From positions 4,360,986 to 4,424,985 of the forward strand of contig OZ223209.1 in the NCBI GenBank assembly GCA_965140415.1: a stretch of 64,000 nt of DNA, in the 5' to 3' direction. Positions 3,237 to 57,631 of the stretch are shown one piece after another; position 1 is the first letter of the stretch, and each line of letters opens with the position of its first letter. Source of the stretch: Myxococcota bacterium. GTDB taxonomy: Bacteria; Myxococcota_A; SURF-8. Below the pieces are notes generated by a model. That model saw only the letters and a program-made list of their open reading frames with translations. It was not told where the DNA came from and ran no database searches. Made by a program: the position numbers and the translations under genes.

Positions 3237-3395
3237 ATGAGTTCACCTTCGTTACTGAAAGAATTGTGGATGTTCTTACGGGTCAGGAAGAAATTCTGGA
3301 TGGCCCCCATCATCCTGACATTGTTGCTTCTGGGTGCATTGATTCTCTTTTCCGAGAGTTCCGCATTGGCACCGTTTATTTACGCGCTGTTTTAA
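3237..3395 (+). CDS. DUF5989-family small membrane protein (52 aa), absent from the ORF track
   Basis: The ORF runs from ATG 3237 to TAA 3393-3395. Its translation is MSSPSLLKELWMFLRVRKKFWMAPIILTLLLLGALILFSESSALAPFIYALF. The LKELWxFLRVRKKFWxxPIIxxLLLLGxL...APFIYxLF pattern matches this widespread micro-protein family as I remember it. Confidence 0.75.
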   Translation: MSSPSLLKELWMFLRVRKKFWMAPIILTLLLLGALILFSESSALAPFIYALF

Positions 3396-3442
3396 ATCGC
3401 TCGAAGCAAGCGAATCACTTCTATCGCGCGATACTGGTAAGC

Positions 3443-3919
3443 ATGGACGAACTCCGCTTTATCTGCGACGCCATGCTGGGACGGCTGGCGAACTGGCTGC
3501 GTATTCTCGGCTATGATACCGTTTTCATTGCGGATATTGCCGATAACGAATTGATTGCAATCGCCGAAACGCAAAAGCGTGTGCTGCTAACTCGCGATAC
3601 GCACCTGCTGAAACGGAAGCTTTTTCGTTCACTGTCACACGGATTCATTTCCAGCAATGATTTCCGAGAACAAGTACGACAAGTTATAGCAGAATGGCAA
3701 CTGACGAAAGCGCACATCGGCACGCGTTGTTTGCGTTGTAATGAAGTGTTGCAGCAAACGTCGAAAGCCAGCGTACAGAACGTGCTGCCGTTTTTCGTCG
3801 CCGCTACGCAAACACAATTCAAGCGCTGTCCGCGCTGTCGCCGCGTGTATTGGCCTGCCACACATCATGAATCATTCCAACGCGAAATCGACGCCATGTT
3901 CACGGACTGCGATTTCTAG
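3443..3919 (+). CDS. Mut7-C RNase domain (DUF82, PIN-like plus zinc ribbon) protein
   Basis: This is an internal ATG of ORF 3266..3919, which would otherwise overlap the micro-ORF. MDELRFICDAMLGRLANWLRILGYDT...LLTRD plus the C-terminal CLRCN...CPRCRRVYW zinc ribbon are hallmark Mut7-C features. Confidence 0.8.
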   Translation: MDELRFICDAMLGRLANWLRILGYDTVFIADIADNELIAIAETQKRVLLTRDTHLLKRKLFRSLSHGFISSNDFREQVRQVIAEWQLTKAHIGTRCLRCNEVLQQTSKASVQNVLPFFVAATQTQFKRCPRCRRVYWPATHHESFQREIDAMFTDCDF

Positions 3920-12409: not shown

Positions 12410-14638
12410 CTAACGCCGTTTGTGCCAACGCCGGGATCGACTTCCAAGCCAACCACCTTTTTGCTGTTGCATCAATTCTCTAAGCTTCGTGGCGGCTCGC
12501 TCCTGGCTGATTTTCCCACTCAGCAAATCATTCGTGATGTTATCCGCCTGCACGGTTCGCCAGATGCTGGCCACGAAATCGAATAACATCTCGATTTGTC
12601 GCGCACCCCATAGCGCCGGAGACAAAGCCCGGTGCTCGTGTAAGCCTTTGGCCGCTTCCGAGTACACCCCATTCAAGCGATCATACAATTTTCGCAGAGC
12701 GGGCCGCAAAGGCTCCCAGGCGGCGCTGGTCTGATCCAGCAGACTTTCGATCTTCATCAGTGCGGCGTGGCTGTCCATCACACCATAGTCCTCAAACGAC
12801 ATCAACTGGATGATCGCATCCTGCCAGTCATCCGGATTCTCGGTATCAAAACGCCCCAGTTGGGTCAACACACGATCGTATGCCTGCCAACGATACACAA
12901 TCTCCAGACCCGGTCCTTTGATGTTCTGCATTCCCATGATTTTAGCATGATAGCCCGGCGGCACCTGACCCGCGATAAAGTGAATCAGCGGATCGCCCTT
13001 GATGGCGGAATCTCTTAGAACGACGACACTGCGTAAAACCTGCTCGACAAGGCGCTTACGATACTGGCGATTCAACTGTTCGATAGCGCCATTGGAAGCG
13101 CCTTTCTCTTCGAATAGCTGTTGCAAGTCCCTGGCGATTGAATCCATCACCAGATGTCTGGCGGCGGTTTCGGCAAGAAACGGAAGGCTTGCGGAACCGA
13201 CTGAAAATCGGAATTCCTTGTCCTGCAACAAAATGGACTCTACTTCCTGTAGCGAATGCCCCTTGATCTTTCTATGCTGCGCTTCACACCAGTTTTCCCA
13301 CTGCTCTTCGCTCCACTTACCGATGCGGTCGCTTTCGGGTAGTTGCTCAAACATCATCCGAATCGCAGTCAGAGCATCGGAATCCAGCCGCATGGCCGTG
13401 CATATCATTTCCAAACGTTTTTCAGCCCGTGGCCGTTCCCGCTCGGGATCGTTCTTGAATTCCGTAATGTCAATGAGCGCCCACTTTCCGTAGCGCAGTT
13501 TCAACTCGTTATTGATAAACCCACGCATACCGCGAACGTTCGATCCGACCACGATGTAACGATGGGCGAACACATCTTCAACGAGAATGCGGGCAAACAC
13601 CTGAGACCGGCTGATGCGATCGGCACGGTTATTGATCAAAGCCACCGCCCAACGATTTAGATCCCCTTCCTGCCCAATGCGTTCGAAACCGGTTCGTCTC
13701 CAATTGTTCATGAAACCGGCGCGTTCGTTGGCCGACATGCCATTAACGAACTGCAACCAGCGCCCGGAAACTTCGGCCTGCGGAAATACGCGCAGCACTC
13801 CTATTTCCGGCACGACCCGTTCGGTCATTTCCACCAGTGCCTGCTCGCGATCGATTCCCAACTCCTCCGCCAATCTCAACACCAATGCCACGTTGGCGGG
13901 ATGTTCCTCGTAAGGAAAGCGCTGCATCATCATGCGTGGCACCAATAAAGGATCGCGTTCATTGACCACCATCAACTCGCTATCCATACGCCGCGCCTCT
14001 TCCTTTAACAACGGAAGCATCTGCACTTCGGTCGTCAGCACTTTTCCCTTTTTCGGAATGAAGTGCGAGATCACCTGGGCGACATCGAAACCGCTTGGAC
14101 CTTGAATATCCTCGTGGTCGGGATAGGCATTGGTGATGGTGGTGTAATCATCGCGCATCCACTGGCGCTGGAGAATTTCGACATAACGTTGGTTTAATGC
14201 CATGCACTCCCACAAAAACACCTGGGAATTGCTCTTTGCCGCCAAAGACAACAGCTTTTCCTGTTCCCAAATGGAAGCCTTGTCGTAAGGTCGGAAGATG
14301 TAAAGCTCCAAAGGATCGCGTCCGGGCAGCGAACGAATGAACATGGCCGAGGAACCGGTGGTCTTGGCGACTACATGGCTATCCAGACTCGCGAAAAGCG
14401 CAGCTTTCAATCGCTCGGTGCCGCTTTTTCCCCGCGTTCCCCAACCACCGATCACCAATGGTACTTTTGCCCGACTTCTGTAAATCCTCTGAAATGCAAA
14501 GGAATGCCGAGCAAGAAAATAAAGTGCCACGAGTAACGTAAAGACCATCAAGCTGAAAATAAGATTACCGGTGGGCGACAGGAAGTAACTCAAATAGGGA
14601 CGAATGGCCAGTTCCAAGCTGGTGTATAGATCTTTCAC
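12410..14638 (-). CDS. PgsB/CapB-like amide ligase (Mur-ligase fold) with an N-terminal membrane anchor and a ~340-aa C-terminal extension
   Basis: GTG start within a GTGA overlap with the upstream stop. Blocks align by eye with remembered B. subtilis PgsB:
- GGWGTRGKSGTERL vs INGIRGKSTVTRL
- VAKTTGSSAMFI vs VGKTTGTDARMI
- WECMALNQRY vs SECMAVNPDY
- AYPDHEDIQGPS vs VLEDHMDVMGPT
- QFVNGMSANE vs HFVNGFAAND
- INNRADRISRSQ vs MNCRADRVDRTQ. Confidence 0.85.
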   Translation of the reverse strand: MKDLYTSLELAIRPYLSYFLSPTGNLIFSLMVFTLLVALYFLARHSFAFQRIYRSRAKVPLVIGGWGTRGKSGTERLKAALFASLDSHVVAKTTGSSAMFIRSLPGRDPLELYIFRPYDKASIWEQEKLLSLAAKSNSQVFLWECMALNQRYVEILQRQWMRDDYTTITNAYPDHEDIQGPSGFDVAQVISHFIPKKGKVLTTEVQMLPLLKEEARRMDSELMVVNERDPLLVPRMMMQRFPYEEHPANVALVLRLAEELGIDREQALVEMTERVVPEIGVLRVFPQAEVSGRWLQFVNGMSANERAGFMNNWRRTGFERIGQEGDLNRWAVALINNRADRISRSQVFARILVEDVFAHRYIVVGSNVRGMRGFINNELKLRYGKWALIDITEFKNDPERERPRAEKRLEMICTAMRLDSDALTAIRMMFEQLPESDRIGKWSEEQWENWCEAQHRKIKGHSLQEVESILLQDKEFRFSVGSASLPFLAETAARHLVMDSIARDLQQLFEEKGASNGAIEQLNRQYRKRLVEQVLRSVVVLRDSAIKGDPLIHFIAGQVPPGYHAKIMGMQNIKGPGLEIVYRWQAYDRVLTQLGRFDTENPDDWQDAIIQLMSFEDYGVMDSHAALMKIESLLDQTSAAWEPLRPALRKLYDRLNGVYSEAAKGLHEHRALSPALWGARQIEMLFDFVASIWRTVQADNITNDLLSGKISQERAATKLRELMQQQKGGWLGSRSRRWHKRR

Positions 14639-16704
14639 GATTGTTCCTCCAGTTCAAAGAACGAGCGAACATCAGGCAGATCCAAATCGACCTCGACTCC
14701 AAACAACTCGTAACGATAGGGTTCAAATGAAATGCTGAAACCGAGCCGACTGCGTAGCGCCTCGATATAATCGATTCGCTTGGGTCGTTCAAGCTGCTGC
14801 ATGGCATCATAGCGTTTGCGATTATACCATTCGTAATCAAAGTTCAATCGCTGCCTGGCGCGCAAACGCGAAAAGACTCCCTTGGGTTGTTGCACCTTTG
14901 TAATGCCGCAAGAACTATAAAGGGAAACCTCCTTGGAGGCTTCGAGGCAATCGTCTGGTAACGGCAGATAGCGCCCCCATCCTCCCATTCGTTCCACCAA
15001 TACGCGCTCGCCGGGAATGGTGGTCGGGTTGACTTCCGCCAGCCGTTCCGGGTGAGCCCGATGCGCAAAGCCATAAACCCGTCCGCGCGTATGCACGGTG
15101 TCGGAACGCATGTTGGGTCGCAGATGGCGAAACTCGTGCAATAATCTCCAAAGTTTGCGCCGAAAGCGCTCGCCTCGCTGCACTTTCAGCTTCCCATTTT
15201 TCACCGTGGCATACAAACCGGCGTCTGTTCTGGTCAAGCTGGCCATGATCCGCACCGCCTCGACGGCAGAGACTCCCTCTGGCAGCGCAACTTGAAATCG
15301 CTTTCCCCAATCCGTCTTTTCAGCCAAAGAGAATATCCGGTCCCGCAAATCTGTAAGAACGGGATCGATCCCGATTCGAATTTCTTCCAGTAACCCGGCA
15401 ATCCGTTCCGTCTCTCCCGCTTCCTCACGAGCAACCAGGCGTTTGACCAAAGCCTGAACGAGTTTTACTTTTACCGCCTCGCTGTTTTCACCCTCCAAAT
15501 CAAGAACCAGCCGCGCACATTCCTGCTGTGCAATCATGCGCACGACATCATTGGTGTCGCGACTCGCCCACCATCCCAAATAAGCAACCGCTTCATTCGC
15601 CTGACTATCGCCGGCGTTGATTTGGCGCAACAGGCGAGAAATCGTCTCTGCCAGGCGCGCGCGAATCGTGTACACCGAATCCGTCCTGGCGTTTTCCGCC
15701 TCGGCGATTTGCAGCAAGATTTCCAACCCGCCAATCGCCGTAAGCCGATCGCAGGCTTCAACACAAGCCAGTCTGGTATATTCGCTCGCATCGGGACGAT
15801 CGGCCAACTCGGTCAATTCCTTCAAGACCTGCTTTATCGGAACATCCGAATCCGCTAATGCGTGCACCGCATGGGCGCGCAGCAGGTAGCGGTCTCCCGA
15901 TTCATCACCATCGCGCAATATGGGTAGCAGGTGCGTAAGAACGGCCTCTGTCCCCAGTCTTCCCATCAGATCGACCAGAGCAACTCGCACCCAGCGATCT
16001 TCTTCGACATTATTCAATAGCGACAGCAGCTCCTCGCCGTGTCGACTGTATATGCGCTGCTGCAACTCCGGCAACAGGTCAAGTATGGCCAGTATCACTC
16101 TCACCGCCGCCCTGCGAGCCTGTGCCTGACCTTCCCTGTTCAGGTAGTCGATCAGCGATGCGATGGTATTCTGGGCCAGTTCGCTGCCTGAAGGCGAATG
16201 AAGCGAATCGACATTCGCATCGATGGGCCGATATAAGCCTTCCAAAGCTTCCAGCGCCACGATCTGGCGCACCCACAAGGCCCAGCGTCCGATGGTCAGG
16301 CGTTCTTCCATCGCTTCCCAGTCTTCACTGGGAGCACTTTTCTTCCACTTGTCTCCCCACTCCGGCCACAGGTCCGGGCGCTTTCGAATCGTGTCTTCCA
16401 GAATGCTGCGACGTTCTTCTTCATCGGTCGCACGATAATACAACCCACGCCAGCGACGGATATTCTCGTATAATTCCTCTTCTGCCCCATGCCACTGCAC
16501 CAGCAGACGAAGCAGCGTCACGTGCAACGCCCGTGCGACCTCCTGCGGTTCCTTTTTGCGCACACCCGCAGGAATCGACAACGTCACGGAAAGATCCTGC
16601 GCAACCTGTTCCACCGCCTCCGGGTTCAAACGCGCAGTGATGGGCCGAATCAGGCGGACCAGTTCCACACTCCAATCGATTTTGCCTCGTGCTTCGGCTA
16701 CCAT
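14635..16704 (-). CDS. Hypothetical cytoplasmic alpha-helical (HEAT/ARM-like) protein
   Basis: A 689-aa ORF with no signal peptide. It has helical-repeat-like segments (LLPILRDGDESGDRYLLRAHAVHALA..., ACVEACDRLTAIGG). Its start overlaps the upstream stop by 7 nt, and its stop overlaps the PgsB-like start. Confidence 0.6.
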   Translation of the reverse strand: MVAEARGKIDWSVELVRLIRPITARLNPEAVEQVAQDLSVTLSIPAGVRKKEPQEVARALHVTLLRLLVQWHGAEEELYENIRRWRGLYYRATDEEERRSILEDTIRKRPDLWPEWGDKWKKSAPSEDWEAMEERLTIGRWALWVRQIVALEALEGLYRPIDANVDSLHSPSGSELAQNTIASLIDYLNREGQAQARRAAVRVILAILDLLPELQQRIYSRHGEELLSLLNNVEEDRWVRVALVDLMGRLGTEAVLTHLLPILRDGDESGDRYLLRAHAVHALADSDVPIKQVLKELTELADRPDASEYTRLACVEACDRLTAIGGLEILLQIAEAENARTDSVYTIRARLAETISRLLRQINAGDSQANEAVAYLGWWASRDTNDVVRMIAQQECARLVLDLEGENSEAVKVKLVQALVKRLVAREEAGETERIAGLLEEIRIGIDPVLTDLRDRIFSLAEKTDWGKRFQVALPEGVSAVEAVRIMASLTRTDAGLYATVKNGKLKVQRGERFRRKLWRLLHEFRHLRPNMRSDTVHTRGRVYGFAHRAHPERLAEVNPTTIPGERVLVERMGGWGRYLPLPDDCLEASKEVSLYSSCGITKVQQPKGVFSRLRARQRLNFDYEWYNRKRYDAMQQLERPKRIDYIEALRSRLGFSISFEPYRYELFGVEVDLDLPDVRSFFELEEQS

Positions 16705-19700
16705 TCACTCACCCATTCTCGATGCGGATCGATTTGCCAGGCTGCGAAATCTTCGCCCGGCAAGGAGTCGCGCAGGCCCCTGTCCGTTGAAAATGCAAAA
16801 CCAAGACCGGCAAAAAATCCGTGCTGGAGGCGATCCGGGTAGAAGTCGTACGAAATCTCCGGGGCAACACGCAACCAGCTAAGCGGCCAGAAATTGTATC
16901 GTCCTTCCAGATGCACCTGATGCCGGTACAACCAGCCATCCCGATCGGCGTCGTCTGCAAGCGGTTGGAACCCATAATAGATCTCGCCCTGGAATCTGCC
17001 GAAAGCGATCTGATCGCCAATTCGCAACGCGAACCGGTCAGGCGAGTAGAAATCGTCGTTGGTGATGTAGCGCATGGACATAAACAGGCTGTTGTTAATC
17101 CAAGGCTGCCATGCCATACGCAACCCGGCAAACAATCCGTAAGGATGATCCTTTCCATAGGGAGAGTAGACGTCCTCATCCATGTAATCCGGCACTTTGC
17201 GTAAGGTCCAGTCGTTCAAGCCCTGCCACTTCCAGAACGCACCGATTTCCGGTGTTAAAGAGAAACTGGAATTCGGCTCGAATCTGCGCCCGATACTGCC
17301 ACTGAGCCGATTACCGCCAGCCAATCCCGTTTGAGTGTCCTGAACGGCGAACCGATTGGACAAGCTTATCCGCAATTCCGGTCCAGGAGTGATCCAGTAT
17401 AGCTTTCCTTCAAGCAGGCTGGTCGGAGCCTCGTCTAACCGGAAGCGGCCCTCCGCCGCCATCGCCAGCCACAGATCCGCCCCTTCGACCCGACGTTTAT
17501 ACCCGAGCCGCGTGGACAAATAGTGGTCGACCTCTTTAATCGGGCCGGTTTCATCGCGCAGTTCTCTACGTACACCCACTAAAAACGACAGCGTCCCCAT
17601 ACCGCTGTCATAGGACACCGGATAGTCTTCCATCAAACGTAATGGAGTGGTAGTGGAAACCGGCATTGAGGCGGTGGCGGTTTCCGTTTTCTTGGACTTC
17701 CGCCGATCTTCCAAACGAACTCCCTCGCCGCGATCCGCTTCCCGGGTATACAGTCGCAGTAACGCCGTAGACTGATTGGTCGGCCCAATCACGATGTGAT
17801 AGTTTTCCGCATCTTCCAACCATAGTTGACGGCTGCCATCGGACATGATCTGGAACGGCTCTACCGAATTTCCGTTCGTCCGAACCTGCACATCCACGGC
17901 AGAAGCGACGCCCGATCTTTCAAAGGAATCGACACGCAGAATCGTCGGACCCAACAAATGGAAACTCACCGGGCGCGCCGCGCTTGCACGCACTAACGAT
18001 GTCTGCACGACCGGCAATAACCAGTACACATCGCCATCTTGTTGCGTCGGAATCCCTGCGACCTGCCGATCCACACCGAAACGAACGGTCGTTGCCGGAG
18101 TGTACAGATGCGAAGCAGGCCAGTGGTACAACTCAAGAATGTAATCCCCCGCTGTGGCCAAAGGTCTTTTCAACCTGCGCACTTCGCCTCGTTTAAGGTC
18201 CACGGTTTCAACGGAGACGCCATTCAACAACATCTCTATACGACAGGCTACAGGCGCATCGTGTACGGGCGGCGAAAACTGATAGCAACCGACCTCCATT
18301 ACGGCGTTGGCGGACCCATCCACCGGAAGATGCACGGAGATCGAAGAACCGGGTAACAGCATTTCCGCTGCGCCAACCTCTTCTTTCATACCCAATATCG
18401 CTTTCAGTAACGCCAGGTAGTTTTCATGCGCCTGGGGCAACAGGCGGGCTGCCTCTTCGCTGATGCGTTCCACCCCATCCATGCGCTCCACTCCGGCAAG
18501 CGGTTCCCAGTGGGTCGCCGACCAGAGCAGCGGGAACCACAGCCCCAAAGCGTCCCAATGCGTCTGCTCGTTCCAGCGTGCGGCACGTTGCAACATCGCC
18601 CGGAAAGACGATGGAACGGGTTCGCCTGCTCCCACTTTTTGTGCGGCTGTTTGTATCCACCACGGTAAACAACCGGTATGCGACACACCTTTGAGCACCA
18701 AATCACTACAGGTGAGCATAGACTGCTCGTTACGCCCCTTTTCTACCTGCTTGACAAAACGTCGCCGCAGTTTCTCGCTCGCCGGACCGTGTCTCTCACC
18801 AACATCCACAGTAGCCGATAACGGAAGCGGTTTCTCGAAAGTAGCCGTACGATTGCAATAGCCGCGATCCAGCCGCTCCCTCAATCCAAGCATGCGCTGC
18901 TCGTTTTCCTGAGTTTTTGACACTTCGGCAGCGGCTCGCATCAGGTCTTCGCGAGCAAATTTCGTGTGCCCCAACCGACACAGGCAATCCGAGCGTTGCA
19001 ACAACCATTCACCACGTTGCTCGTTTTTTTCCGCTGGGAGGGCAGCCAGTTTCTCGCTTAGCGACTGTACCTCTTTCAACCGGCGGAAATAGTCAGACGT
19101 GCTTTCCTGCTTCGCAGTAGCAGTCACCTCCGGTTCGTTAACTCCCTCCAGTGGCCGGGGCATACGCAGCAGCATGCGAACGTGCCAGGCCTGCCGTGCA
19201 GCAGGGTCCATCCGCACGCGAATGCGCTCGGAGCAATCCCCGGTCTGGAATGAAATGGAAACGGGTTGTGAAACGAAGGCATTGGGGCGGTTTGCCAATG
19301 GATAGCGGATACCGCTCGAACCGGAATTAACCTGTAATTGTACTTCTCTTGCTCCCATGCCCACGGTAAAGGTCACGGCCTCATCGGCGGAAGCAGTCGT
19401 GGGCGGGAATGCCTGGAACAGGGCATAACCACTGTATCCTTCCCTGGGAGCCTCGAAAACTACATCCTCTCCCGGCTTCACTTCCCAGGCCTGCACCAGC
19501 TTGGCTCCAGCCACTTGATCGCTTTGCCGTTCGATCATGCGCACCTGCATCCAGACATCCACGTCGTTGCGAGTCATCACGCGGACGGGCACGGAATCCG
19601 CCACCAGCACTCGATGCAATTGAACGGGAGCCGTCGAGGTTAGCCAGACCGGCGTTTCATCGAAACGCAACTGTGCTCGCGCGTCTTTACCGGACGTAAT

Positions 19701-21473
19701 CAGAGTCAAGGATCTTGCCACATTCGGTGCAAAACGAGAGGAGGTCAGCGTCGGTTGCTCTCCCAAACGCACAAGCGACAATCCTCCCGGCAGCGCATCG
19801 CTTTCAGGATATAGGGAACGCTGCTGGAAAACATACTCGCCGTGGTTGAATTCGTCTGCGGGCGGTTCCAGTTGTTGCCATATCGAATCGAGATACCACA
19901 ACTCACGTAAAGCACTGATCTGCTCCGTGCTTGCTTCTCCCTTTCGTAACGACGGCTCCAGTTGCCAGCCGGGATAGTAATAGCTGAACTGCGTGAAAAC
20001 ATGCTCCACCTGCTCGCGCCGGAACTGTTCCCCGCGTCGATCTTCCCAGGTCATCGATTCATGCGGCACGTCTACATCAAGCAACTGTAACCCTTGCTCC
20101 AATTCGGAAACGGTAAGAATCTCTCCTTCCGCCGAACAGTGATCCAAACGAAACGCGATCAGCTTCAGTATTTCTTCAGAGAATGCGGATTGATTGATCA
20201 AATGGCCATAATGCAGTTGCGCCACGTCGCATTGACCCAGGCGAATCGCCTGTTCGGTCTTTTCGAAGCAGGAGAACGAATCATGATCGTCGGAATAAAG
20301 AGCGTTCAGATTCTCTTCCCCATGCGCGGCATCTTCAATATGGCGTTTGTGCGTGCCGCTCTGAATGGACCACCAGGAGGCACGGCCACTCAACTCAACA
20401 TGAAATCGGTGTTCGCCGGGAGGCACAAACACTTTGATCGTATCCCGCTTACCTAAAACGGCTCCCAAAGGCGAACGCAGTAGCGGAGCTTCTATCATCC
20501 ATTCGTTTTCCGAATACGGTTCCCGATCCGGATACACCGGAATCGCATGTTCGAAAACGGAATCGCCATCTCGACGGACGCTCAATAAGGTTTCTTCTAA
20601 AACAGGCGTCGGCTCCAGCCTTACTTCCGGGCGGTATCGAATTTGCAATACGGCGGGACCGGTTGCGGTAAACTCGAAGGGCCGCTGCCCTCGGCAATAT
20701 TGCAGTTCCTGATCCTCATCTTCCAACAGGTCGAAACATTCTTTGCCCGCCAGCTTTGACAGATCCACCACGTCATAGGCCCATTCCATCATTGGACGCT
20801 GACGGCTGACCTCCCAGATCGCCTGCTGTTGCAGAAACAACCGCACTCGTTCCGGTTTTACCTGTTCTGCCAGACCGCTGAAATGCACCCATTCCGATAA
20901 AAACCATAAGCGATCCGCAAGACTGCTCTGCACGGTCAACGGAGAATTTTCAGGGCGACCGGGTCGTAAGGCCGCCCGTTGCGCCCAATCCTTCAAACCT
21001 TCCTCGTAGTGCTCCCACACATAACTCCCAGAAACGGTACTGGCCATCCCGACCTTTAGCGAGGCATCTTTCCTACTGATCTGCCGACACATGATGGCCG
21101 GATCGCCCGGCATGCGCAAAAAGGCATCCGCCTGCAAAGTCTGTCCGTCTTTTTCCGTCGGGTACCAGGCCACGCCCTGCCCGTCCAGGGAAAGCCGGAT
21201 ATAGGGATTCTCATCCGAGTCGGCAGCCGGGCTGAAAAGCAGGATGTTACTGGAAGTCGATTCGGCACATAAGTAACGACCGGCTTTGGCTTTATAGGGA
21301 CGCAGCGCTCTAAGCGCTTTTCCGCTTGCGGGATCGAGTGTTTCATTCAACGTGAATGTACGAACCGGAGCGACGAGCAACGTGGGGTTCTCTGTTTGAG
21401 CAGACAACGGCATCGCACTGCAAAGCAGCAGCCAATTAACTGCAAGACAAATTGTCCACCAAAGTCGTTTCAC
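16698..21473 (-). CDS. Giant secreted protein (about 1,591 aa) with a beta-barrel-like C-terminal region
   Basis: GTG 21473 gives MKRLWWTICLAVNWLLLCSAMPLSAQ with AGGTGG 9 nt upstream; the listed ATG 21515 would overlap the upstream gene. The last ~300 aa have alternating aromatic/hydrophobic beta-strand patterning and end in ...REWVSEW. Confidence 0.7.
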   Translation of the reverse strand: MKRLWWTICLAVNWLLLCSAMPLSAQTENPTLLVAPVRTFTLNETLDPASGKALRALRPYKAKAGRYLCAESTSSNILLFSPAADSDENPYIRLSLDGQGVAWYPTEKDGQTLQADAFLRMPGDPAIMCRQISRKDASLKVGMASTVSGSYVWEHYEEGLKDWAQRAALRPGRPENSPLTVQSSLADRLWFLSEWVHFSGLAEQVKPERVRLFLQQQAIWEVSRQRPMMEWAYDVVDLSKLAGKECFDLLEDEDQELQYCRGQRPFEFTATGPAVLQIRYRPEVRLEPTPVLEETLLSVRRDGDSVFEHAIPVYPDREPYSENEWMIEAPLLRSPLGAVLGKRDTIKVFVPPGEHRFHVELSGRASWWSIQSGTHKRHIEDAAHGEENLNALYSDDHDSFSCFEKTEQAIRLGQCDVAQLHYGHLINQSAFSEEILKLIAFRLDHCSAEGEILTVSELEQGLQLLDVDVPHESMTWEDRRGEQFRREQVEHVFTQFSYYYPGWQLEPSLRKGEASTEQISALRELWYLDSIWQQLEPPADEFNHGEYVFQQRSLYPESDALPGGLSLVRLGEQPTLTSSRFAPNVARSLTLITSGKDARAQLRFDETPVWLTSTAPVQLHRVLVADSVPVRVMTRNDVDVWMQVRMIERQSDQVAGAKLVQAWEVKPGEDVVFEAPREGYSGYALFQAFPPTTASADEAVTFTVGMGAREVQLQVNSGSSGIRYPLANRPNAFVSQPVSISFQTGDCSERIRVRMDPAARQAWHVRMLLRMPRPLEGVNEPEVTATAKQESTSDYFRRLKEVQSLSEKLAALPAEKNEQRGEWLLQRSDCLCRLGHTKFAREDLMRAAAEVSKTQENEQRMLGLRERLDRGYCNRTATFEKPLPLSATVDVGERHGPASEKLRRRFVKQVEKGRNEQSMLTCSDLVLKGVSHTGCLPWWIQTAAQKVGAGEPVPSSFRAMLQRAARWNEQTHWDALGLWFPLLWSATHWEPLAGVERMDGVERISEEAARLLPQAHENYLALLKAILGMKEEVGAAEMLLPGSSISVHLPVDGSANAVMEVGCYQFSPPVHDAPVACRIEMLLNGVSVETVDLKRGEVRRLKRPLATAGDYILELYHWPASHLYTPATTVRFGVDRQVAGIPTQQDGDVYWLLPVVQTSLVRASAARPVSFHLLGPTILRVDSFERSGVASAVDVQVRTNGNSVEPFQIMSDGSRQLWLEDAENYHIVIGPTNQSTALLRLYTREADRGEGVRLEDRRKSKKTETATASMPVSTTTPLRLMEDYPVSYDSGMGTLSFLVGVRRELRDETGPIKEVDHYLSTRLGYKRRVEGADLWLAMAAEGRFRLDEAPTSLLEGKLYWITPGPELRISLSNRFAVQDTQTGLAGGNRLSGSIGRRFEPNSSFSLTPEIGAFWKWQGLNDWTLRKVPDYMDEDVYSPYGKDHPYGLFAGLRMAWQPWINNSLFMSMRYITNDDFYSPDRFALRIGDQIAFGRFQGEIYYGFQPLADDADRDGWLYRHQVHLEGRYNFWPLSWLRVAPEISYDFYPDRLQHGFFAGLGFAFSTDRGLRDSLPGEDFAAWQIDPHREWVSEW

Positions 21474-21493
21474 GTTATACGCCACCTTTGTCC

Positions 21494-24097
21494 CTAGCGT
21501 CCTGCCGATTTCCAAATCATGTATCCCTGTCCGACTTTCGGTTTCTCGACGGACGCGAATGCACGAACCCAGACTTCCCCCTGCCCTTTCAGCGTCAGGC
21601 GCAGCTGATGTCCGCCTGCCGCCGCTTCTTCAAACAGCGTCATCATAAATACTTCCGGCTGGCGAACCGTTTGCGAACGGGCGGCATCCAACACGGCGGA
21701 ACTGGTCGGAGCGATCATCAACTCCAACTCCTTATTGGCCGGTGTCACACCGGTCGAAATCGCCCAGCTTTTCAAGCGCGGTGCTCCCCGATCCAGTAAG
21801 CCGCTTAAGCGGGTTGCGCTGCGTTTTTTACCCACGCCATACGCCAGTACATTAATCGTTCGTTTGCCGCGCCCGGAATGCGAAACCGGAAGCAACATGG
21901 AACCGTCTTTTTGCAACCGGCAAACCGTGCGCATCGCAAAAACATCCGCCCACGGAGCCTGCTTGACCGGCAGGTTGATCCAGTAACGCCCACCCTGTGA
22001 AGGTGCATGGAGCAGAACCTGATGTTCCCCACTTGCAACACGTTCGCTTAGTTCACCAACGACCATTCGAGCAGGACCGCCGGTTACCTTCTTGGTTTCC
22101 CATGTCAGACTAACCAGTTCTCCCAGTCGTTCGGAATTCCCCAGATCGTAACGCAGCATTACAGGACGCCCCAGGTAATCCTCCGGCACCGTCACATCGT
22201 AGTTCTGGCCCGGTCGAATTTCGGTGAACGTTCCATAACTCCAGGGCATCTCCCGCTCGGCTGGATCTTTTAAAGGCTCCAGCAACCCGGAACAGGTGGG
22301 AGTCCCCTGCGGTTGCAGCACTTCGTAGAAATTCGTCAACGATTCCTCGCCCGGCACAGGCAGATCCAATCGAGGCTGGGCGGCAATCCGCACCCTGCGC
22401 CCTTGTTTTATAAGACGCTTTTCAGCCAGCGGCGGAACCGCCATCCAGCGGGAACGCGCGAAACTCTCGTTGCGCCAGCGATACGGTTCAACGTTTACAG
22501 CATACGCTTCGTCGAGTTGTTCCTCGCAATACAGACAACTTGGAGTCTGCACGATCACATCCACCGTTTCGGGCGAAGAAAGTCGCAGGGTATACTGACC
22601 TTCGGGAAAACGCAGAAAGCCCACCTGGGCATCACCGACAACCTGCGGGCTGGCCGGGTCCATGTCCGGATAGGATTCAAGCGCAGAAGGCAATGTAGTC
22701 GCCTGCATCTCGCCCGCGTACTTGACCTCTCCCTGCTGATCCACAACCTCGACCCCGATTGTGAACTGCGTTTCGCCTTTCTCCTCCGGCGTCATGGCCA
22801 GATAAGCCAACAGGCGCACGCTATCTCCTCTTCGTTGACCCGCATACAGTGGATACTCAACCGGCGACTGGCCAGGCAGAATGCGCGTAGCGGTAAAAGT
22901 TCTTGCCTTCGGTTGAATCAACGAAGCCGAATCTCCCACCAGTGGAGACGGCAACCACGTGACCTCTCCCAATACCGAGTCTCTCTCCCCCTTTTCCAAT
23001 AGAGGCGCGATCGACAGGTAATTCTCGCTTTGATTGGTGAGTGTCAGAGTCGTGGGTTGCGATTCGCTATAGCTGAATTCACCAAGCTTTCGAAAAGCTC
23101 CGCCCACGAGTTTGGTAGAAAGAGAACGGTCTTTCACCTGATCCGGCGCTATCAGCCATTGCAGCGACACAGTAGCGTCTATTGGTCCCGCCGGTGGTTC
23201 CGGTTCGGGTTTGCGAGCAGCCTGCTCGGCAAAGGACAAAGGTGCCGCCATTATCCGAGCTAGAACAGATAACGTCACCGGTCCACGCAGCGTAATCGCC
23301 AGCGCCTGCCCGGGAGCAAGCATGGAACCGGCAGTATCTTCAGGAAGCGGATCGGGACGTCTGTAGGTCGTCACAAATACCTGTGAAGTGGTGTAATCTA
23401 CCCCGCTCATACCCAAGGCCGTTAAGCGTTGCCAATCTTTGGACAGCAGCAGCTCGCGCTCCAAAGCGGTCAAATCACGCCAGTCGCTGCGGAAAATCCG
23501 TTCCGCCTGTCGGAACCTCTCCTCCGCCGTCAACGACAATTCCAGGCTGGTAATCTCCAGAATCGAGCGAGGTTGCGTGCGATACGCCCTTACAAACAAC
23601 GTTGCGTTAGGCCAACCAAGCAACTCCACCTGCATCGCGCCTTTTTCCTGCGGCACGTCCAAAGGCATATGCACCACCGTCAAGCGGTCATCGGTAATAG
23701 GATCGCCTTCGTTATTGAATGCGCATTCCTTCAACCAGACACCGTCTCTAAGTTCATCCTTGCTTTGCCGCGTTTCCACCCAGTATTCATGCGACCAACT
23801 TTCCGTCTCGCCCTGCTCCACAATGGAAATCCGCATACCGTAGGTGTAGGTTTTGTCCGGATCGTAAACCGAATTCTCCGGCAATTTCAAATGAGAAATC
23901 AGGCGCACATCACGATCGGAAGCGAATACGCCTAAAGACAGCGGGTTTTCCGGTGTCACGTCGTAATAGAGGATCGATTTGGCATTCGCCAGTTTCCAGT
24001 CCCAGGGATTCTGCCGTAGCAGATAATCTTTCGCGCCGAAAAGCATGATGGTAATCAGCACCAGCGCGAGCAACAACGGGCCCAGAATGCGCATCAT
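21494..24097 (-). CDS. N-terminally anchored periplasmic protein of unknown function (867 aa)
   Basis: MMRILGPLLLALVLITIMLFGA is a single N-terminal hydrophobic helix. I recognise no family. Its ATG overlaps the upstream stop as ATGA. Confidence 0.65.
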   Translation of the reverse strand: MMRILGPLLLALVLITIMLFGAKDYLLRQNPWDWKLANAKSILYYDVTPENPLSLGVFASDRDVRLISHLKLPENSVYDPDKTYTYGMRISIVEQGETESWSHEYWVETRQSKDELRDGVWLKECAFNNEGDPITDDRLTVVHMPLDVPQEKGAMQVELLGWPNATLFVRAYRTQPRSILEITSLELSLTAEERFRQAERIFRSDWRDLTALERELLLSKDWQRLTALGMSGVDYTTSQVFVTTYRRPDPLPEDTAGSMLAPGQALAITLRGPVTLSVLARIMAAPLSFAEQAARKPEPEPPAGPIDATVSLQWLIAPDQVKDRSLSTKLVGGAFRKLGEFSYSESQPTTLTLTNQSENYLSIAPLLEKGERDSVLGEVTWLPSPLVGDSASLIQPKARTFTATRILPGQSPVEYPLYAGQRRGDSVRLLAYLAMTPEEKGETQFTIGVEVVDQQGEVKYAGEMQATTLPSALESYPDMDPASPQVVGDAQVGFLRFPEGQYTLRLSSPETVDVIVQTPSCLYCEEQLDEAYAVNVEPYRWRNESFARSRWMAVPPLAEKRLIKQGRRVRIAAQPRLDLPVPGEESLTNFYEVLQPQGTPTCSGLLEPLKDPAEREMPWSYGTFTEIRPGQNYDVTVPEDYLGRPVMLRYDLGNSERLGELVSLTWETKKVTGGPARMVVGELSERVASGEHQVLLHAPSQGGRYWINLPVKQAPWADVFAMRTVCRLQKDGSMLLPVSHSGRGKRTINVLAYGVGKKRSATRLSGLLDRGAPRLKSWAISTGVTPANKELELMIAPTSSAVLDAARSQTVRQPEVFMMTLFEEAAAGGHQLRLTLKGQGEVWVRAFASVEKPKVGQGYMIWKSAGR

Positions 24098-27000
24098 GGC
24101 AGCACCTCCCCGTTGCAGACTCCGGCACCCTGGCCATACCGCAGCGTGTTGAGTTCCAACTCACCGGTGGTATTGATTTCCGCATCGCTTGCAGCAGGGC
24201 TTTCCATACGAACGACACAGCGCGGACCTTGATTGTCCTGCACGAGTAACAAGAAATATTTTCCGCTGCACGAATCACGCAACAGGCTCGGGAGCACGTC
24301 TCCCTTCCCTGCCTTTTCGGATATCGCTTTTAACAGCGAGACGTTTCGCAAGCGGGAAAACTCGTTTGCCAATTCCAGTGTTTCTTTCAATGTCGCGGAA
24401 GCCGGTTGTTCAGCGGGAATTTTTAAAACGTCTTCCATGCTGCTGGAAACCAGCGGATAACCGAGATCGCGAATGGTGGCGACCCAGCGAGCGATTTGCT
24501 CGCCGCCTGGCTGCTGCATTCTCACCTCCGCATTCACCCACAGTACCGCCGCCGATTGCGGGTCCAGCGATGCGGAATAGCGCAGTTGCAGATCATCCAC
24601 GCCCTTCAATCCAAGCTGGTATTTGTCTCCCGCATACAACTGCCATTTCAAGCCCTCCAGATCCAGATCGTGCAGCAGATCGTTCATCATCATCGAACGC
24701 GGCGAGCGCTCCGGCAGATCCATGGCAGCGGAAATCAACACGTCTTCATCAATCGGTCTGACTTTCGAAATGCCGCGAACGATCAGCACCCATGGCGTAG
24801 TCGCGCCCGGCTTAACGGGATAGGCTGCCCGATGCGCGGCATGGAATGGATTGACGACATTCTCCAACCTCGTGATGTCCGCCAGCCCGTCGCGTCGCGC
24901 CTGTAAATCCGCCGTAGCGACATACAAAGCCGACGCATTCAAGCGTCCATACAGATCCATGGCCATCTCGGCCACTCCGGTTTCCAGTAGCGGTCTGGGA
25001 ACTTCGATGGTCCAGCGAGACGATCCCGCGCGGAACAGGTAGGCTCCCCAATGTCTCTCGCCATGCGCTTCATGCAACAGCACTTCGAATCCCTTGCGCC
25101 CTTCCGAGCGAAAGAGGGACAGCTCATAACCCAATACCGAAGCACGCTGCTTGATCAAGGTCAAGCTCAGCCGCATATCGGTCTCACTGCGCTTATAGTT
25201 CAGTAGTTCACGCCGCAGCGGTCGAATGATCGCGTTTTCCAAGTAGGTCATCTCAATCGGCATCGGCGTTCGATACGCTTCCGAGTATGGCGGTGCAATC
25301 GCCTCTTCGTCGGAGTCGAGCAACTCGCGCAACGTCGCCAGGCCGGATTGCGACTGCTCCTGCTCGCTCGGCTCGCTTGTCGGCCATAGGTTAAGCAATT
25401 CCTGTTCGTTCAACACCAGTTCCATAAACTCGATATCCGCGCGGTTTCTGGCCGGATTCTTTTTCTCGTACGGATCGAAACGAATGCTGTAGGTTGGAAA
25501 ACGATTTTTCAACTCCGTAAGCGGCATGGCCTCCGGAACACGCTGCTGCACGTAGGCGACCGTCGGTCCCGGACTCGTGCGAATCTGCACGACGGCCTGT
25601 TTTGCGAGCAGTTCGTGTGCAACGGAAAATGGCGATCCCACCGCATGCAGCACCGACCGTTCACGAGGACGGAAAGAGCGCCAGCCGTTTACGAGCAACC
25701 CGCAGGCATGCACGGAAGGGAATATCGCCAGCGCGGCGTCCAGAGCCGCCGCTTCTTCATAAGGATACGGCACTTCAAGCAACACCCCGTCTTTGCAGCC
25801 GGGAACGAACACAACGGTGCCCCAGCCTTGCAATTGATGCAGCGGACTGTCCAGCGGCTCGCGCAATACGATCAAGGTGGTTTCCGGATCGTCCGGAAGT
25901 TGCGTTCGAACAACTTCCAGGTGCAGGCGCTTCAAGTCTTCGGTAAAGCTCTCATCCAGAAATTGGTTTCCGCGTACGATATTCTTGTTCAATACCAGGT
26001 TACGCACTCCGGCCAATACTCGCTGATAGCGCAGTCTGGCCGCAGCCGAGGTGGGACGGAAATCCTCCGGCAATACTGCAAAGGTCTGCACGGAGGCCAG
26101 ATGTAGTTGCAGCGGGTCCGCATCGAGCAATTGCGATTCGGCATGCGCAACCGAGGACTCGGCCACACCTTCAGCCACAAAGAGCTTATCCACCTGAAAC
26201 AGAGCCAAGCCGACGATGTTTCCGAAAATGAACGCCAGAAACGAAGTCAATAAAGTCGGACCGATCACCAGCGACCAACTGCGGCGCTCCCAGATATTCA
26301 ACGCAACCAGACTGGGCAGCAAATAACCGAAGCCGAACAGATCGGATACGCGAAAACCGGGAGCAGTTTCGGTAAAATAGTACCCGAGCATGAACTTCAA
26401 TCCCAGCCCTACCGTAAAAATCAGAATCAGTCGCCTGGAACCTTCCAGATTGCTGCGCATGAAAATCGGCAGCGAGGCGATCATCCAGGCGATTCCAGCC
26501 ACCAAAGAAGCTTCGACCAGCGTGGCTGCAACCTTTATCGGCATGTACCAGGCCACGGCCAACAGGGCCGGAATCATGATGCCGTTGAAATCCCAGCCCA
26601 GTTTCAAATTGAAACGAGCCGCCAGCATCATACCGACGATCAGTGTAATGTAAATTTTTGGAGAGCTGGCAAAGTCCAGCGCCAGATCCTGGAAAGTCAA
26701 TTCGAAGTTTGCAATGGAAAAATTCGTATTGGGAATCAGCAGATATACCAGAATCAAATAGGTCAAAACGACCGGCGTTCCCACCTGTATCGCTCCACGC
26801 ACGAATCCTGGCTTCCACATCGCGTGCGCCGTCAGCGGAACGATGACCAGGCCGATTCCGTATAGATGGCTCACCGCCTCCAGCGGCAGACCGAAAAGCT
26901 GCACGGTCCAGTCCGAAAGCGACTGGAAAAACCACGCCTCATAAAACAGGCGCACCAATAGACTGATAATGAAAAAGGCCAGAAAACGATCGCGACCGAA

Positions 27001-27267
27001 CAAGCTGTGCCACCAACCGAACCGGCTCAATAGTTCCGATAAGGTGTAAACCACCACATAGGTGGTTACGATTTCCATGCAGATCACCAAACCGGCTTGC
27101 GGCGCAATGACAAAAACCGAAGCCAGGTATCCGCTAACCACCAGACCGGCAAAACTCCAGCCCAGCGACTCGGTGAAGAAGGCATGGATCAGCAACCCGA
27201 TATAAATCGGAATCAGAATCGAGTTATCCAGCCCCCGAGAGGGGAAAATGGCAAGAACGTCTTCCAC
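24094..27267 (-). CDS. Tandem PgsC/CapC-like membrane domain fused to a ~700-aa soluble region with two internal repeats
   Basis: GTG start 6 nt after the upstream stop. Residues ~15-180 and ~205-360 each resemble B. subtilis PgsC from memory (FAGLVVSGYLASVF vs PAGLVVPGYLGLVF; FGRDRF vs YGRRKF; GIGLVIVPLTAHAMWKPG vs GIGIIVPGLIANTIQKQG; the second copy has NGIMIPALLA...GSRR...GFGYLLPSLVALN). The soluble part carries two similar modules (GWGTVVFVPG..LLEVPYPYEE and HWGAYLFRAG..TIEVPRPLLE). Confidence 0.8.
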   Translation of the reverse strand: MEDVLAIFPSRGLDNSILIPIYIGLLIHAFFTESLGWSFAGLVVSGYLASVFVIAPQAGLVICMEIVTTYVVVYTLSELLSRFGWWHSLFGRDRFLAFFIISLLVRLFYEAWFFQSLSDWTVQLFGLPLEAVSHLYGIGLVIVPLTAHAMWKPGFVRGAIQVGTPVVLTYLILVYLLIPNTNFSIANFELTFQDLALDFASSPKIYITLIVGMMLAARFNLKLGWDFNGIMIPALLAVAWYMPIKVAATLVEASLVAGIAWMIASLPIFMRSNLEGSRRLILIFTVGLGLKFMLGYYFTETAPGFRVSDLFGFGYLLPSLVALNIWERRSWSLVIGPTLLTSFLAFIFGNIVGLALFQVDKLFVAEGVAESSVAHAESQLLDADPLQLHLASVQTFAVLPEDFRPTSAAARLRYQRVLAGVRNLVLNKNIVRGNQFLDESFTEDLKRLHLEVVRTQLPDDPETTLIVLREPLDSPLHQLQGWGTVVFVPGCKDGVLLEVPYPYEEAAALDAALAIFPSVHACGLLVNGWRSFRPRERSVLHAVGSPFSVAHELLAKQAVVQIRTSPGPTVAYVQQRVPEAMPLTELKNRFPTYSIRFDPYEKKNPARNRADIEFMELVLNEQELLNLWPTSEPSEQEQSQSGLATLRELLDSDEEAIAPPYSEAYRTPMPIEMTYLENAIIRPLRRELLNYKRSETDMRLSLTLIKQRASVLGYELSLFRSEGRKGFEVLLHEAHGERHWGAYLFRAGSSRWTIEVPRPLLETGVAEMAMDLYGRLNASALYVATADLQARRDGLADITRLENVVNPFHAAHRAAYPVKPGATTPWVLIVRGISKVRPIDEDVLISAAMDLPERSPRSMMMNDLLHDLDLEGLKWQLYAGDKYQLGLKGVDDLQLRYSASLDPQSAAVLWVNAEVRMQQPGGEQIARWVATIRDLGYPLVSSSMEDVLKIPAEQPASATLKETLELANEFSRLRNVSLLKAISEKAGKGDVLPSLLRDSCSGKYFLLLVQDNQGPRCVVRMESPAASDAEINTTGELELNTLRYGQGAGVCNGEVLP

Positions 27268-46400: not shown

Positions 46401-46530
46401 CCGGGAATTCAATATCCGGGTACAAATCCACGCCGATACGCGGATAACTCACCGCACCAAACACCACGATAGCCAGAATAACCATCGTGATGAAAACGGG
46501 GCGTTTGATCGATACATCAGAAAGGACCAT
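43408..46530 (-). CDS. RND efflux permease (AcrB/MexB-type, HAE1-like)
   Basis: A 1,040-aa protein. The N-terminus [42 protein letters not shown] is the canonical AcrB-family start. It has the 12-TM architecture with two large periplasmic loops. Confidence 0.95.
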   Translation of the reverse strand: [1040 protein letters not shown]

Positions 46531-49122: not shown

Positions 49123-49124
49123 GT

Positions 49125-53653: not shown

Positions 53654-53673
53654 GATCCACCTCGATGTAAATC

Positions 53674-56162: not shown

Positions 56163-56169
56163 GATTCAC

Positions 56170-57563: not shown

Positions 57564-57631
57564 ATTTTGATAATGTTTTTTTAACGATTCAATAATAATT
57601 GTTGAATCCTCGGACTAAGGAACGGCTCGCC

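Follow-up and report, generated by a model that had tools for sequence, protein, structure and literature searches.

A tandem CapC fusion protein with apparently degenerate hydrolase-like modules in a conserved operon of Gram-negative bacteria

The fusion gene and its layout

We analysed 64,000 nucleotides (nt) of DNA from a Myxococcota bacterium (NCBI GenBank assembly GCA_965140415.1, contig OZ223209.1, positions 4,360,986 to 4,424,985 of the forward strand). This whole stretch is called the window below, and positions are counted from its first letter. The gene in question encodes a protein of 1057 amino acids (aa), in which two CapC/PgsC membrane domains are joined in a single chain to a long soluble region made of two related modules, and it resides in an operon that is shared by many Gram-negative bacteria. 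The open reading frame (ORF) lies on the minus strand at 24094..27267, exactly where an earlier interpretation of the DNA from its letters alone (the sequence-only reading) had placed it, and runs from a GTG start to a TGA stop. The start is supported by homologs, which align over their full length from residue 1; it is located 6 nt past the stop of an upstream gene for a CHASE2-like protein, and a Shine-Dalgarno-like stretch, AAGGGGAG, precedes it by ~9 nt. The AlphaFold2 (AF2) model of the full-length protein had a predicted local distance difference test score (pLDDT) of 82.7 and a predicted template modelling score (pTM) of 0.66. The gene is laid out as follows.

24094..27267, minus strand: whole fusion gene, two CapC units and two putative pseudo-PghP-like modules, 1057 aa (ORF list, full-length homologs, AF2)
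26692..27267, minus strand: CapC/PgsC unit 1, residues 1-192 (PF14102, PgsC alignment, conservation)
26143..26691, minus strand: CapC/PgsC unit 2, residues 193-375 (PF14102, hhalign against unit 1, alignment)
25843..26142, minus strand: low-confidence linker (residues 363-377), then the N-terminal subdomain of module 1, helical with a beta-hairpin (residues 376-475) (DSSP and pLDDT of the AF2 model, hhalign)
25333..25842, minus strand: core of soluble module 1, residues 476-645, putatively degenerate PghP/FGase/M14-like alpha/beta domain (hhalign, site table)
25753-25776, minus strand: module 1 motif EVPYPYEE, residues 498-505; R563 falls on the position of the third zinc ligand
24493..25170, minus strand: soluble module 2 including its N-terminal subdomain, residues 700-925, putatively degenerate PghP/FGase/M14-like domain (AF2, Foldseek, site table)
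24982-25005, minus strand: module 2 motif EVPRPLLE, residues 755-762; R758, R831 and W910 fall on the positions of zinc ligand 1, zinc ligand 3 and the catalytic Glu
24097..24492, minus strand: C-terminal tail, residues 926-1057 (weak hhalign likeness to the N-terminal subdomain of the modules)

Two CapC domains in one chain

The whole protein matched the Pfam family PF14102 in two stretches (E = 1.1e-37), and each half of the membrane region did so by itself. Unit 1 (residues 1-192) scored 78.6 bits (E = 6.8e-22, model positions 1-117 of 119) and unit 2 (residues 193-375) 66.4 bits (E = 4e-18, model positions 1-115 of 119), the gathering cutoff of the family being 27 bits. When profiles of the two units were compared with each other by hhalign, they aligned over 121 columns with E = 2.7e-5. 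Both units are confirmed as complete CapC domains, and the protein is a member of PF14102 twice over. The separate scores bear out the tandem duplication claimed by the sequence-only reading, which had described the membrane region as a covalently linked CapC/PgsC pseudo-dimer. No other membrane family fits the region better: DUF1761 (E = 0.005) and MHYT (E = 0.04), the only further matches, fell well short of the threshold.

The motifs on which that claim had been based are all present, namely GLVVSGYL (residues 41-48), GRDRF (91-95), GIMIPALL (229-236) and GSRRL (276-280). We aligned both units with a reference sequence of Bacillus subtilis PgsC, which was validated only by its PF14102 score of 131 bits. 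Unit 1 shares three motifs with this reference: GLVVPGYL of PgsC is kept as GLVVSGYL, GRRKF (in general form G-R-x-[RK]-F) appears as FGRDRF, and G-x-x-[IV]-V-x-L-x-A-N is kept as GIGLVIVPLTA. The corresponding stretches of unit 2 are GILIPALLA, EGxRK and FGFGYL, respectively, and the diverged motifs of this unit in the window protein read GIMIPALL, EGSRR and FGFGYLLPSLVA. Among 38 homologs, each unit carries a near-invariant Glu within a membrane helix (E65 and E252), and the reference PgsC lacks a Glu at the position aligned with them. The AF2 model shows an identical pattern of helices twice, with an acidic amphipathic helix (residues 186-201) joining the units. No PDB match to the membrane region was obtained by Foldseek with the full-length model, phmmer found nothing for the whole protein among PDB sequences, and a tblastn search with unit 1 found no match in 72,556 plasmids.

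A large family in Gram-negative bacteria

A protein search of 5.8 billion sequences yielded 324 matches, and the best 120 of them were almost all 1040-1110 aa long with the same coverage. Hosts among the best matches include Corallococcus, Pyxidicoccus, Methylococcaceae, Crenothrix, Nitrosomonas, Legionella yabuuchiae and Planctomycetes. By scanning one genome per GTDB species (~185,000 species), we found the fusion in 494 species, which include Myxococcota, Desulfobacterota (cable bacteria among them), Campylobacterota, Zetaproteobacteria and Magnetococcales, as well as Thiomargarita, Beggiatoa, Hydrogenophilales and Pirellulaceae. The closest relatives of the window protein, at 51-60% identity, come from metagenome-assembled genomes of uncultured Myxococcales or 'Deltaproteobacteria'. 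When a profile of the soluble module was used instead, a hidden Markov model (HMM) search recovered 2465 proteins at E<=1e-3, and the best 150 were all of the fusion architecture or fragments of it, with two module stretches each. The fusion architecture is a large conserved Gram-negative family; it is neither a one-off nor peculiar to this genome.

Many members of ~1050-1100 aa are named 'PgsC/CapC biosynthesis protein' by PGAP and IMG. In the literature we found no paper on the family, its modules or its operon, nor any in which PF14102 comes up in such a setting or CapC and CHASE2 are treated jointly.

Two soluble modules of a predicted zinc-hydrolase fold

The soluble region had been described from the letters as two similar alpha/beta modules, and the two peptides quoted in support were found at residues 481-513 and 739-772. 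The self-comparison proposed at that time revealed a significant internal repeat: with profiles of the 38 homologs, residues 376-690 aligned with residues 691-1057 over 190 columns (hhalign, probability 99.8%, E = 2e-27, 16% identity), and even a single-sequence BLASTP comparison gave E = 2e-4. The two modules are thereby supported as homologs. Both duplications in the protein, that of CapC and that of the soluble region, are real and ancient, and the latter is not a recent DNA repeat.

In addition, the tail at residues ~960-1055 resembles the two-helix and beta-hairpin subdomain at the N-terminus of the modules (hhalign, E = 1.6e-5, 96 columns, 9% identity). The tail may be a truncated third repeat of this subdomain, albeit the likeness is suggestive only.

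The folds were compared with known structures by Foldseek. The top PDB matches of the full-length model were the poly-gamma-glutamate (PGA) hydrolases PghP of phage PM1 (21dc), YndL/PghL (5onj) and PghP of PhiNIT1 (3a9l), with probabilities of 0.99-1.0 and template modelling (TM) scores of ~0.5 normalised to the target, followed by M14-like carboxypeptidases, succinylglutamate desuccinylase, MpaA and pyroglutamyl peptidases. Module 2 was also folded alone (pLDDT 87.7, pTM 0.88). Its model had 11 PDB matches at E<1e-3, all of them zinc peptidases with a phosphorylase/hydrolase-like fold (M14-like, the catalytic domain of M20/DapE, M28 and PghP/YndL), with nucleoside phosphorylases appearing from E = 1e-3 onward. 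The best geometry was that of PghP/YndL (21dc and 5onj; probability 1.0, TM 0.47-0.52, root-mean-square deviation ~5 Å), whereas the others deviated by 8-12 Å, and PghP was also the top match in BFVD. The predicted structures thus place both modules in the PghP/YndL, FGase and M14-like zinc-hydrolase fold, in agreement with what had been guessed from the letters.

A stand-alone paralog of the modules

Almost every operon that carries the fusion gene also encodes, two genes downstream of it, a protein of ~300 aa, which we call F290. A profile of F290 aligned with that of the module over 199 columns (hhalign, probability 98.7%, E = 4.4e-16), such that EVPxPLxE of the modules corresponds to QAPHSFxD of F290, and QVR to QLHGF. 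Signal peptides are present in the F290 proteins, as are two conserved Cys.

Mutagenesis has identified residues that PghP needs (PMC6506827). Zinc is bound by His41, Glu46 and His102 in PghL and by His40, Glu45 and His103 in PghP (PMC6506827). PghL also needs His77/78 and Glu165, the counterpart of Glu270 in carboxypeptidase A, and Arg171 serves the carboxylates of the substrate (PMC6506827). We built a PghP family profile from relatives of the PM1 PghP gene, and that of F290 aligned with it over 166 colinear columns (E = 0.008). Six functional residues are matched in order and spacing.

F290 H114: first zinc His of PghP/PghL
F290 D118: zinc Glu of PghP/PghL
F290 H151: His78 of PghP/PghL
F290 H177: second zinc His of PghP/PghL
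F290 E255: catalytic Glu (Glu165) of PghP/PghL
F290 R261: Arg171 of PghP/PghL

All six are invariant or at least 90% conserved in F290, H151 being at least 90% conserved. One difference lies in the zinc motif, which is H-x3-D in F290 and H-x4-E in PghP/PghL. The score of the profile alignment, 25.9, exceeded those of all 40 column-shuffled nulls (mean 15.1, sd 3.0, max 23.1), which aligned over a median of 17.5 columns. In the same profile test, unrelated operon proteins gave E = 0.2-0.7, and a comparison of F290 with a single PghP sequence was not significant (E = 0.11). These findings make it very probable that F290 is a zinc amidohydrolase of the PghP/FGase type that acts in the periplasm.

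Loss of the active site in the fused modules

Through the module-F290-PghP profile alignments, the active-site positions could be mapped onto both modules and counted across the 38 homologs.

Zinc ligand 1: Ala 17, Arg 11, Tyr 4 and His 2 in module 1; Arg 23 and His 6 in module 2 (of 38)
Zinc ligand 2: Glu in 37/38 (module 1) and 36/38 (module 2)
Zinc ligand 3: Arg in 36/38 (module 1) and 37/38 (module 2)
Catalytic Glu (Glu165 of PghL, Glu270 of carboxypeptidase A): variable in module 1 (V/E/D/R/M/I); Trp in 38/38 in module 2
Equivalent of Arg171: not conserved in module 1; kept in module 2 (R916, 37/38)

Neither module has the His-Glu-His zinc triad or the catalytic Glu. M14 metallocarboxypeptidases have the zinc motif HxxE...H; the modules carry P-x-x-E instead, with an invariant Pro at the position of the His (P502 and P759) and Arg at that of the distal His. 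Only two residues, the prolines of the motif E-V-P-x-P-x-x-E (residues 498-505 and 755-762), are invariant in module 1 and module 2 alike, and the modules also share a near-invariant Glu (E505/E762) and a near-invariant Arg that ends a later strand (R563/R831).

With one metal ligand left out of three and no general base, the modules look like catalytically degenerate pseudo-enzymes. The substituted site lacks the ligands yet is strongly conserved, and therefore bears the signature of a pseudo-enzyme, in which a former active site would have been selected for a new role. Most simply, this role would be the binding of a ligand or a partner. The suggestion that the modules supply a missing hydrolase activity is not supported, as the ligands at zinc positions 1 and 3 and the catalytic Glu are replaced in both modules across the 38 homologs.

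Compared with PghP and PghL/YndL (MEROPS M86, PF05908, with FGase and M14 as neighbours), the fused modules thus share the predicted fold, and their conserved motif ends the same strand as the zinc motif does. They differ in that they lack zinc ligands 1 and 3 and the catalytic Glu, bear an additional N-terminal subdomain of two helices and a hairpin, and do not match PF05908 or any PDB chain significantly by sequence. The module profile did not match the PghP family profile significantly either (E = 0.5). At most, the modules would work in the manner of a PghP that has no chemistry.

The operon and its partners

Neighbourhoods of the fusion gene were examined with tblastn and family HMMs in Corallococcus, Legionella, Crenothrix and 80 further loci from reference genomes. 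The dominant gene order is CHASE2-like, CapC-CapC fusion, F820, F290, F1100/F700 and F1400. Presence is given below as a fraction of the loci with enough flanking sequence.

F820: 64/65 loci
F290: 62/63 loci
F1100: 53/55 loci
F700: 44/45 loci
CHASE2-like, upstream of the fusion gene: 44/59 loci

Clustering of all 2198 ORFs in these loci revealed no further conserved family (none in more than 14/83 loci) and no ligase. The remaining operon proteins were considered as hidden copies of the module and rejected (E = 0.2-0.7); the single-linkage merger of these proteins with the fusion and F290 does not, therefore, stem from a shared module domain.

The operon of the window runs on the minus strand, with gene boundaries that overlap or are 6 nt apart; for instance, the start of F820 overlaps the stop of the fusion gene. 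In addition to the fusion gene, it comprises the following.

27274..29316, minus strand: CHASE2-like membrane sensor, 680 aa (PF05226 E = 1.4e-23, family HMM E = 1.3e-54)
21494..24097, minus strand: F820, 867 aa, N-terminal signal or anchor, no known domain (family HMM E = 6.2e-23)
16698..21515, minus strand: F1100/F700 fused, 1605 aa, signal peptide (family HMMs E = 2e-38 and 1.6e-39)
14635..16704, minus strand: N-terminal part of F1400, 689 aa, HEAT repeats, no signal peptide (family HMM E = 4e-42, HEAT_2 E = 8e-8)
12410..14638, minus strand: probable C-terminal part of F1400, 742 aa, N-terminal membrane segment (from size and synteny only)
29317-31068, minus strand: S53 sedolisin-like lipoprotein, Pro-kumamolisin activation domain and subtilase (Pfam)
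31093-31977, minus strand: FGE-sulfatase-like lipoprotein (Pfam)

F1100/F700 is usually a single protein of ~1780 aa, whose conserved part is the C-terminal ~400 aa; this part is barrel-like and ends in ...REWVSEW, with Trp as the last residue. Legionella and Crenothrix have separate genes for F1100 (~1100 aa) and F700 (~700 aa), and in most genomes, including that of the window, the two form one protein of 1600-1800 aa. F1400 is a HEAT-repeat protein of ~1400 aa (1370-1530 aa in Corallococcus, Legionella and Crenothrix), and in the window it appears to be split into the HEAT protein of 689 aa and the membrane protein of 742 aa. The same pair (691 and 738 aa) was found in one of the closest relatives (locus L085), and the 742-aa protein had tblastn matches in 3 loci. 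F1400 could be the one part of the system that resides in the cytoplasm.

The S53 and FGE genes lie directly upstream of the CHASE2-like gene, and the same pair was found in the two closest relatives (loci L085 and L086). They are subclade-specific accessory genes of the operon, because the S53 gene occurs in only 12/83 loci.

F290, whose usual slot is between F820 and F1100, was not found anywhere in the 64 kb of the window. It is absent from the window operon, and the catalytic partner would therefore be encoded elsewhere or have been lost. In the closest relatives, F290 has been relocated to a divergent position upstream of the operon (L085, 2329-3282, minus strand; L086, 4261-5214, minus strand; E = 1e-50). 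The region upstream of the FGE gene in the window instead holds an ORF of 231 aa resembling an outer-membrane protein and, at 33041-35209 on the plus strand, a protein of 722 aa with four HEAT/PBS-lyase repeats.

Membrane topology

We infer a periplasmic location for the C-terminal modules. F290, the paralog of these modules, is secreted, as its signal peptides indicate, and the operon partners F820 and F1100/F700 carry signal or anchor sequences. In PhoA fusions to PgsC of B. subtilis, the C-terminus mapped to the outside and residue 73, which immediately precedes GRRKF, to the inside (PMC7490850). In the fusion family, the N-terminus and the linker between the units are almost free of Lys and Arg (0.26 and 0.11 per sequence, respectively), and clusters of these residues precede the last helix of each CapC unit. 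A model with the N-terminus outside and six membrane segments per unit gave 10.4 Lys and Arg inside versus 2.3 outside.

Discussion

We tentatively propose that the fusion protein is the inner-membrane core of a conserved and hitherto undescribed six-gene envelope system of Gram-negative bacteria, in which it would act as a conduit equipped with periplasmic binding modules derived from a hydrolase. The CapC pseudo-dimer would form the conduit, that is, the same channel-forming unit that two PgsC molecules would make up in the Bacillus synthetase. The periplasmic modules would be non-catalytic binders. At the mouth of the conduit they would hold a peptide or polymer that is acidic and probably gamma-glutamyl-linked, and they may also serve to dock F290, the active paralog, and to regulate it. 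In Bacilli, PgdS and CapD trim or release the polymer, and F290 might treat its substrate likewise. The large periplasmic partners and the barrel-like outer-membrane protein would complete the path across the envelope, and the CHASE2-like protein may gate or regulate the system.

Several observations weigh against this proposal. No enzyme that makes a gamma-glutamyl polymer was found in the operon loci or in the window, and the window's own operon is without F290. The assignment of the folds is also open to criticism: the PghP matches are at TM ~0.5, PghP and other zinc peptidases that share its fold cannot be told apart by their Foldseek E-values, the module profile had no match among PDB sequences at E<=10, and 26 module sequences had none in Pfam. 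For F290, the profile alignment with PghP is no more than moderately significant (E = 0.008), the F290 profile retrieved only a spurious match to Musashi among PDB sequences (E = 1.5), and the comparison with Pfam was not significant, PF05908 being reached at E = 0.17 in 1/13 members. As for topology, a model of four crossings per unit shows no charge bias (Lys and Arg 5.8 versus 6.4). In the AF2 model, moreover, helices 44-54 and 56-83 are one residue apart, and the break between them looks more like a kink than the hairpin that the model of six segments needs.

It is attractive, although we consider it rather doubtful, to take the proposal further and regard the six genes as a new trans-envelope machine that assembles, exports or anchors a surface polymer of gamma-glutamyl-type or otherwise acidic peptide without a PgsB-type ligase. 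If this is genuinely the case, the operon would represent a new mechanism of synthesis or translocation, with a dimer of the CapC fold as its central membrane element.

Alternatively, the system might work in the opposite direction. The barrel-like outer-membrane protein would admit a gamma-glutamyl or acidic peptide polymer from outside, F290 would cut it in the periplasm, and the dead modules, in the manner of tethered substrate-binding proteins, would hand the oligomers over to the paired CapC units acting as an ion-coupled importer. An operon without a ligase is natural for a catabolic or uptake system, and the modules keep one Glu of the metal site and have gained a conserved Arg, which suits the capture of a carboxylate-rich ligand. 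The near-invariant membrane Glu of each CapC unit (E65 and E252) is of a kind often seen in proton-coupled carriers, and it has been proposed that selection favours PghP-family hydrolases in non-producing organisms that live on PGA from their surroundings (PMC4497714). Nevertheless, PgsC, the only protein with a CapC domain whose function is known, belongs to a complex for synthesis and export; the four very large, structural-looking proteins of the operon go far beyond the needs of uptake; and the genome of the window retains the operon with no F290 nearby. We therefore regard uptake as unlikely.

A role in cell-wall remodelling seems similarly improbable to us. In that case, F290 would be a periplasmic amidase that attacks the stem peptide of peptidoglycan, which contains gamma-D-Glu, the dead modules would regulate or position F290, and the paired CapC units would serve as a membrane transducer. 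The system spans the envelope, and its fold class includes MpaA, a gamma-D-Glu-meso-diaminopimelate amidase (4axv, rank 22 in the Foldseek search with the full-length model). An inactive membrane-fused paralog beside an active secreted one also follows the known logic of pseudo-enzyme activators such as FtsEX-EnvC: degenerate LytM factors (EnvC, which is held by FtsEX, and NlpD) activate amidases. The analogy with FtsEX-EnvC and NlpD would lie in a dead hydrolase paralog that controls or positions an active hydrolase at the inner membrane, but there is no homology, as those systems use the LytM fold, an ABC-like membrane partner and peptidoglycan as the substrate. Against remodelling, no peptidoglycan-binding domain (LysM, SPOR or OmpA-like) was detected in any partner, the best matches in structure and motifs are PGA hydrolases and FGase rather than MpaA, and the family is patchy (494 of ~185,000 species), unlike core cell-wall machinery.

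It appears very unlikely that the fusion protein is simply the PgsC subunit of a PGA synthetase whose PgsB and PgsA are encoded elsewhere in the genome. Such a view could draw on the strong PF14102 matches, which make both halves of the membrane region full-length CapC domains like that of PgsC in the Bacillus PgsBCA(E) synthetase, on the PgsC motifs retained in unit 1, and on the label 'PgsC/CapC' given to many members by PGAP and JGI. On three of the four points on which a functional PgsC could be tested (equivalog score, size and architecture, and linkage to pgsB and pgsA), however, the fusion protein does not behave as one. It scored 65.7 bits on TIGR04011, the PgsC equivalog, under the cutoff of 96.45 bits. 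PgsC is a stand-alone protein of ~150 aa, whereas the fusion has 1057 aa, with two joined copies of the domain and ~680 residues more. No pgsB/capB or pgsA/capA gene adjoins it in the loci examined, or lies within the 64-kb window; it is instead locked into a different and invariant operon, and no additional neighbour family is conserved in the 83 loci. The fusion also differs from PgsC in its Gram-negative hosts and in the additional conserved membrane Glu residues E65 and E252.

More broadly, none of the scanned ORFs of at least 150 aa in the window contained a Mur-ligase/PgsB, ATP-grasp or CapA/PgsA domain, and there was no PgsB, PgsA or ATP-grasp protein among the called genes of five homolog loci. 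The locus is not a canonical PgsBCA synthetase, because no PgsB, PgsA or ATP-grasp gene is present in the window or in any operon examined, which covers 88 other loci. The setting implied by the sequence-only reading, a variant of the Bacillus PGA synthetase, is not supported, given the same lack of genes and the score below the equivalog cutoff. In lucinid symbionts, a Gram-negative PGA pathway operates with an ordinary pair of CapB and CapC (PMC11168628). That Gram-negatives with a genuine PGA pathway possess this ordinary pair speaks against a canonical PgsC here and underlines that the long form of CapC is something other than the CapC of an ordinary PGA pathway.

Least probable of all, both modules could be active through a new metal-independent or differently ligated site made of the conserved Glu, the conserved Arg and E-V-P-x-P; the substituted site (the invariant P-x-P, E505/E762, R563/R831 and W910) is highly conserved and therefore under selection rather than decaying, but all three residue classes that PghP needs according to mutagenesis (PMC6506827) are incomplete, with two metal ligands out of three missing and the general base gone, and an intact paralog, F290, accompanies the modules in nearly every operon, the usual signature of a pseudo-enzyme paired with its enzyme.

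For the conduit with binding modules that we favour, the closest functional precedent found is the Rlo system of Pseudomonas aeruginosa. There, the inner-membrane protein RloB has seven transmembrane segments and, in the periplasm, a transglutaminase domain that is inactive; it acts with RloA, an active peptidase that is secreted, and with the ATP-grasp ligase RloC (PMC11957051). Both systems would combine a polytopic inner-membrane protein that bears a dead peptidase-like domain in the periplasm with a secreted active peptidase from the same operon, and poly-glutamate chemistry is suspected in both (PMC11957051). The folds are, however, unrelated (transglutaminase and retropepsin versus PghP-like), as is the membrane domain; the rlo operon encodes a cytoplasmic ligase and the fusion operon none; and no large periplasmic or outer-membrane partners have been reported for rlo.

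To our knowledge, no structure of PgsC exists. That a covalent CapC-CapC fusion occurs naturally and is conserved in ~500 species is an argument for the dimer as the working form of the CapC fold, and the fusion offers a stable single-chain target for structural work. If a CapC conduit is coupled to inactive copies of a domain resembling the PGA hydrolases while the operon encodes an active one, the system would link the only two folds known to be specific for gamma-glutamyl polymers. Its hosts are not known as PGA producers: myxobacteria, cable bacteria, giant sulfur bacteria, methanotrophs, nitrifiers, Zetaproteobacteria, planctomycetes and a Legionella species. The names 'PgsC/CapC' in the databases, given despite the failed equivalog test and the lack of synthetase partners, amount to a widespread annotation problem. 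In addition, no domain can be recognised in four of the six operon proteins, which reach lengths of up to 1800 aa, and this leaves a sizeable blank in the map of the Gram-negative envelope.

Other genes in the window

Besides the operon, the window contains a cluster on the minus strand (52847-56850), which encodes a protein with a VTC domain of the polyphosphate-polymerase type (52847-53653), a TolC-like outer-membrane efflux protein (OEP; 53674-54948), an HlyD-like adaptor (54945-56162) and a DUF4956/MgtC-like membrane protein (56170-56850). It is followed by a two-component system on the plus strand (57599-59913). Tandem paralogous transposase genes of an insertion sequence (DUF4372 and DDE_Tnp_1) lie at 50015-51217 and 51418-52596 on the plus strand. 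Beside them is a TetR-regulated efflux operon of the resistance-nodulation-division type on the minus strand, with AcrB (43408-46530), HlyD (46542-47669), OEP (47707-49128) and TetR (49125-49748). On the plus strand, we also noticed a gene for a protein with a Mut7-C RNase domain (3266-3919) and a weak match to radical SAM proteins (60063-61169).

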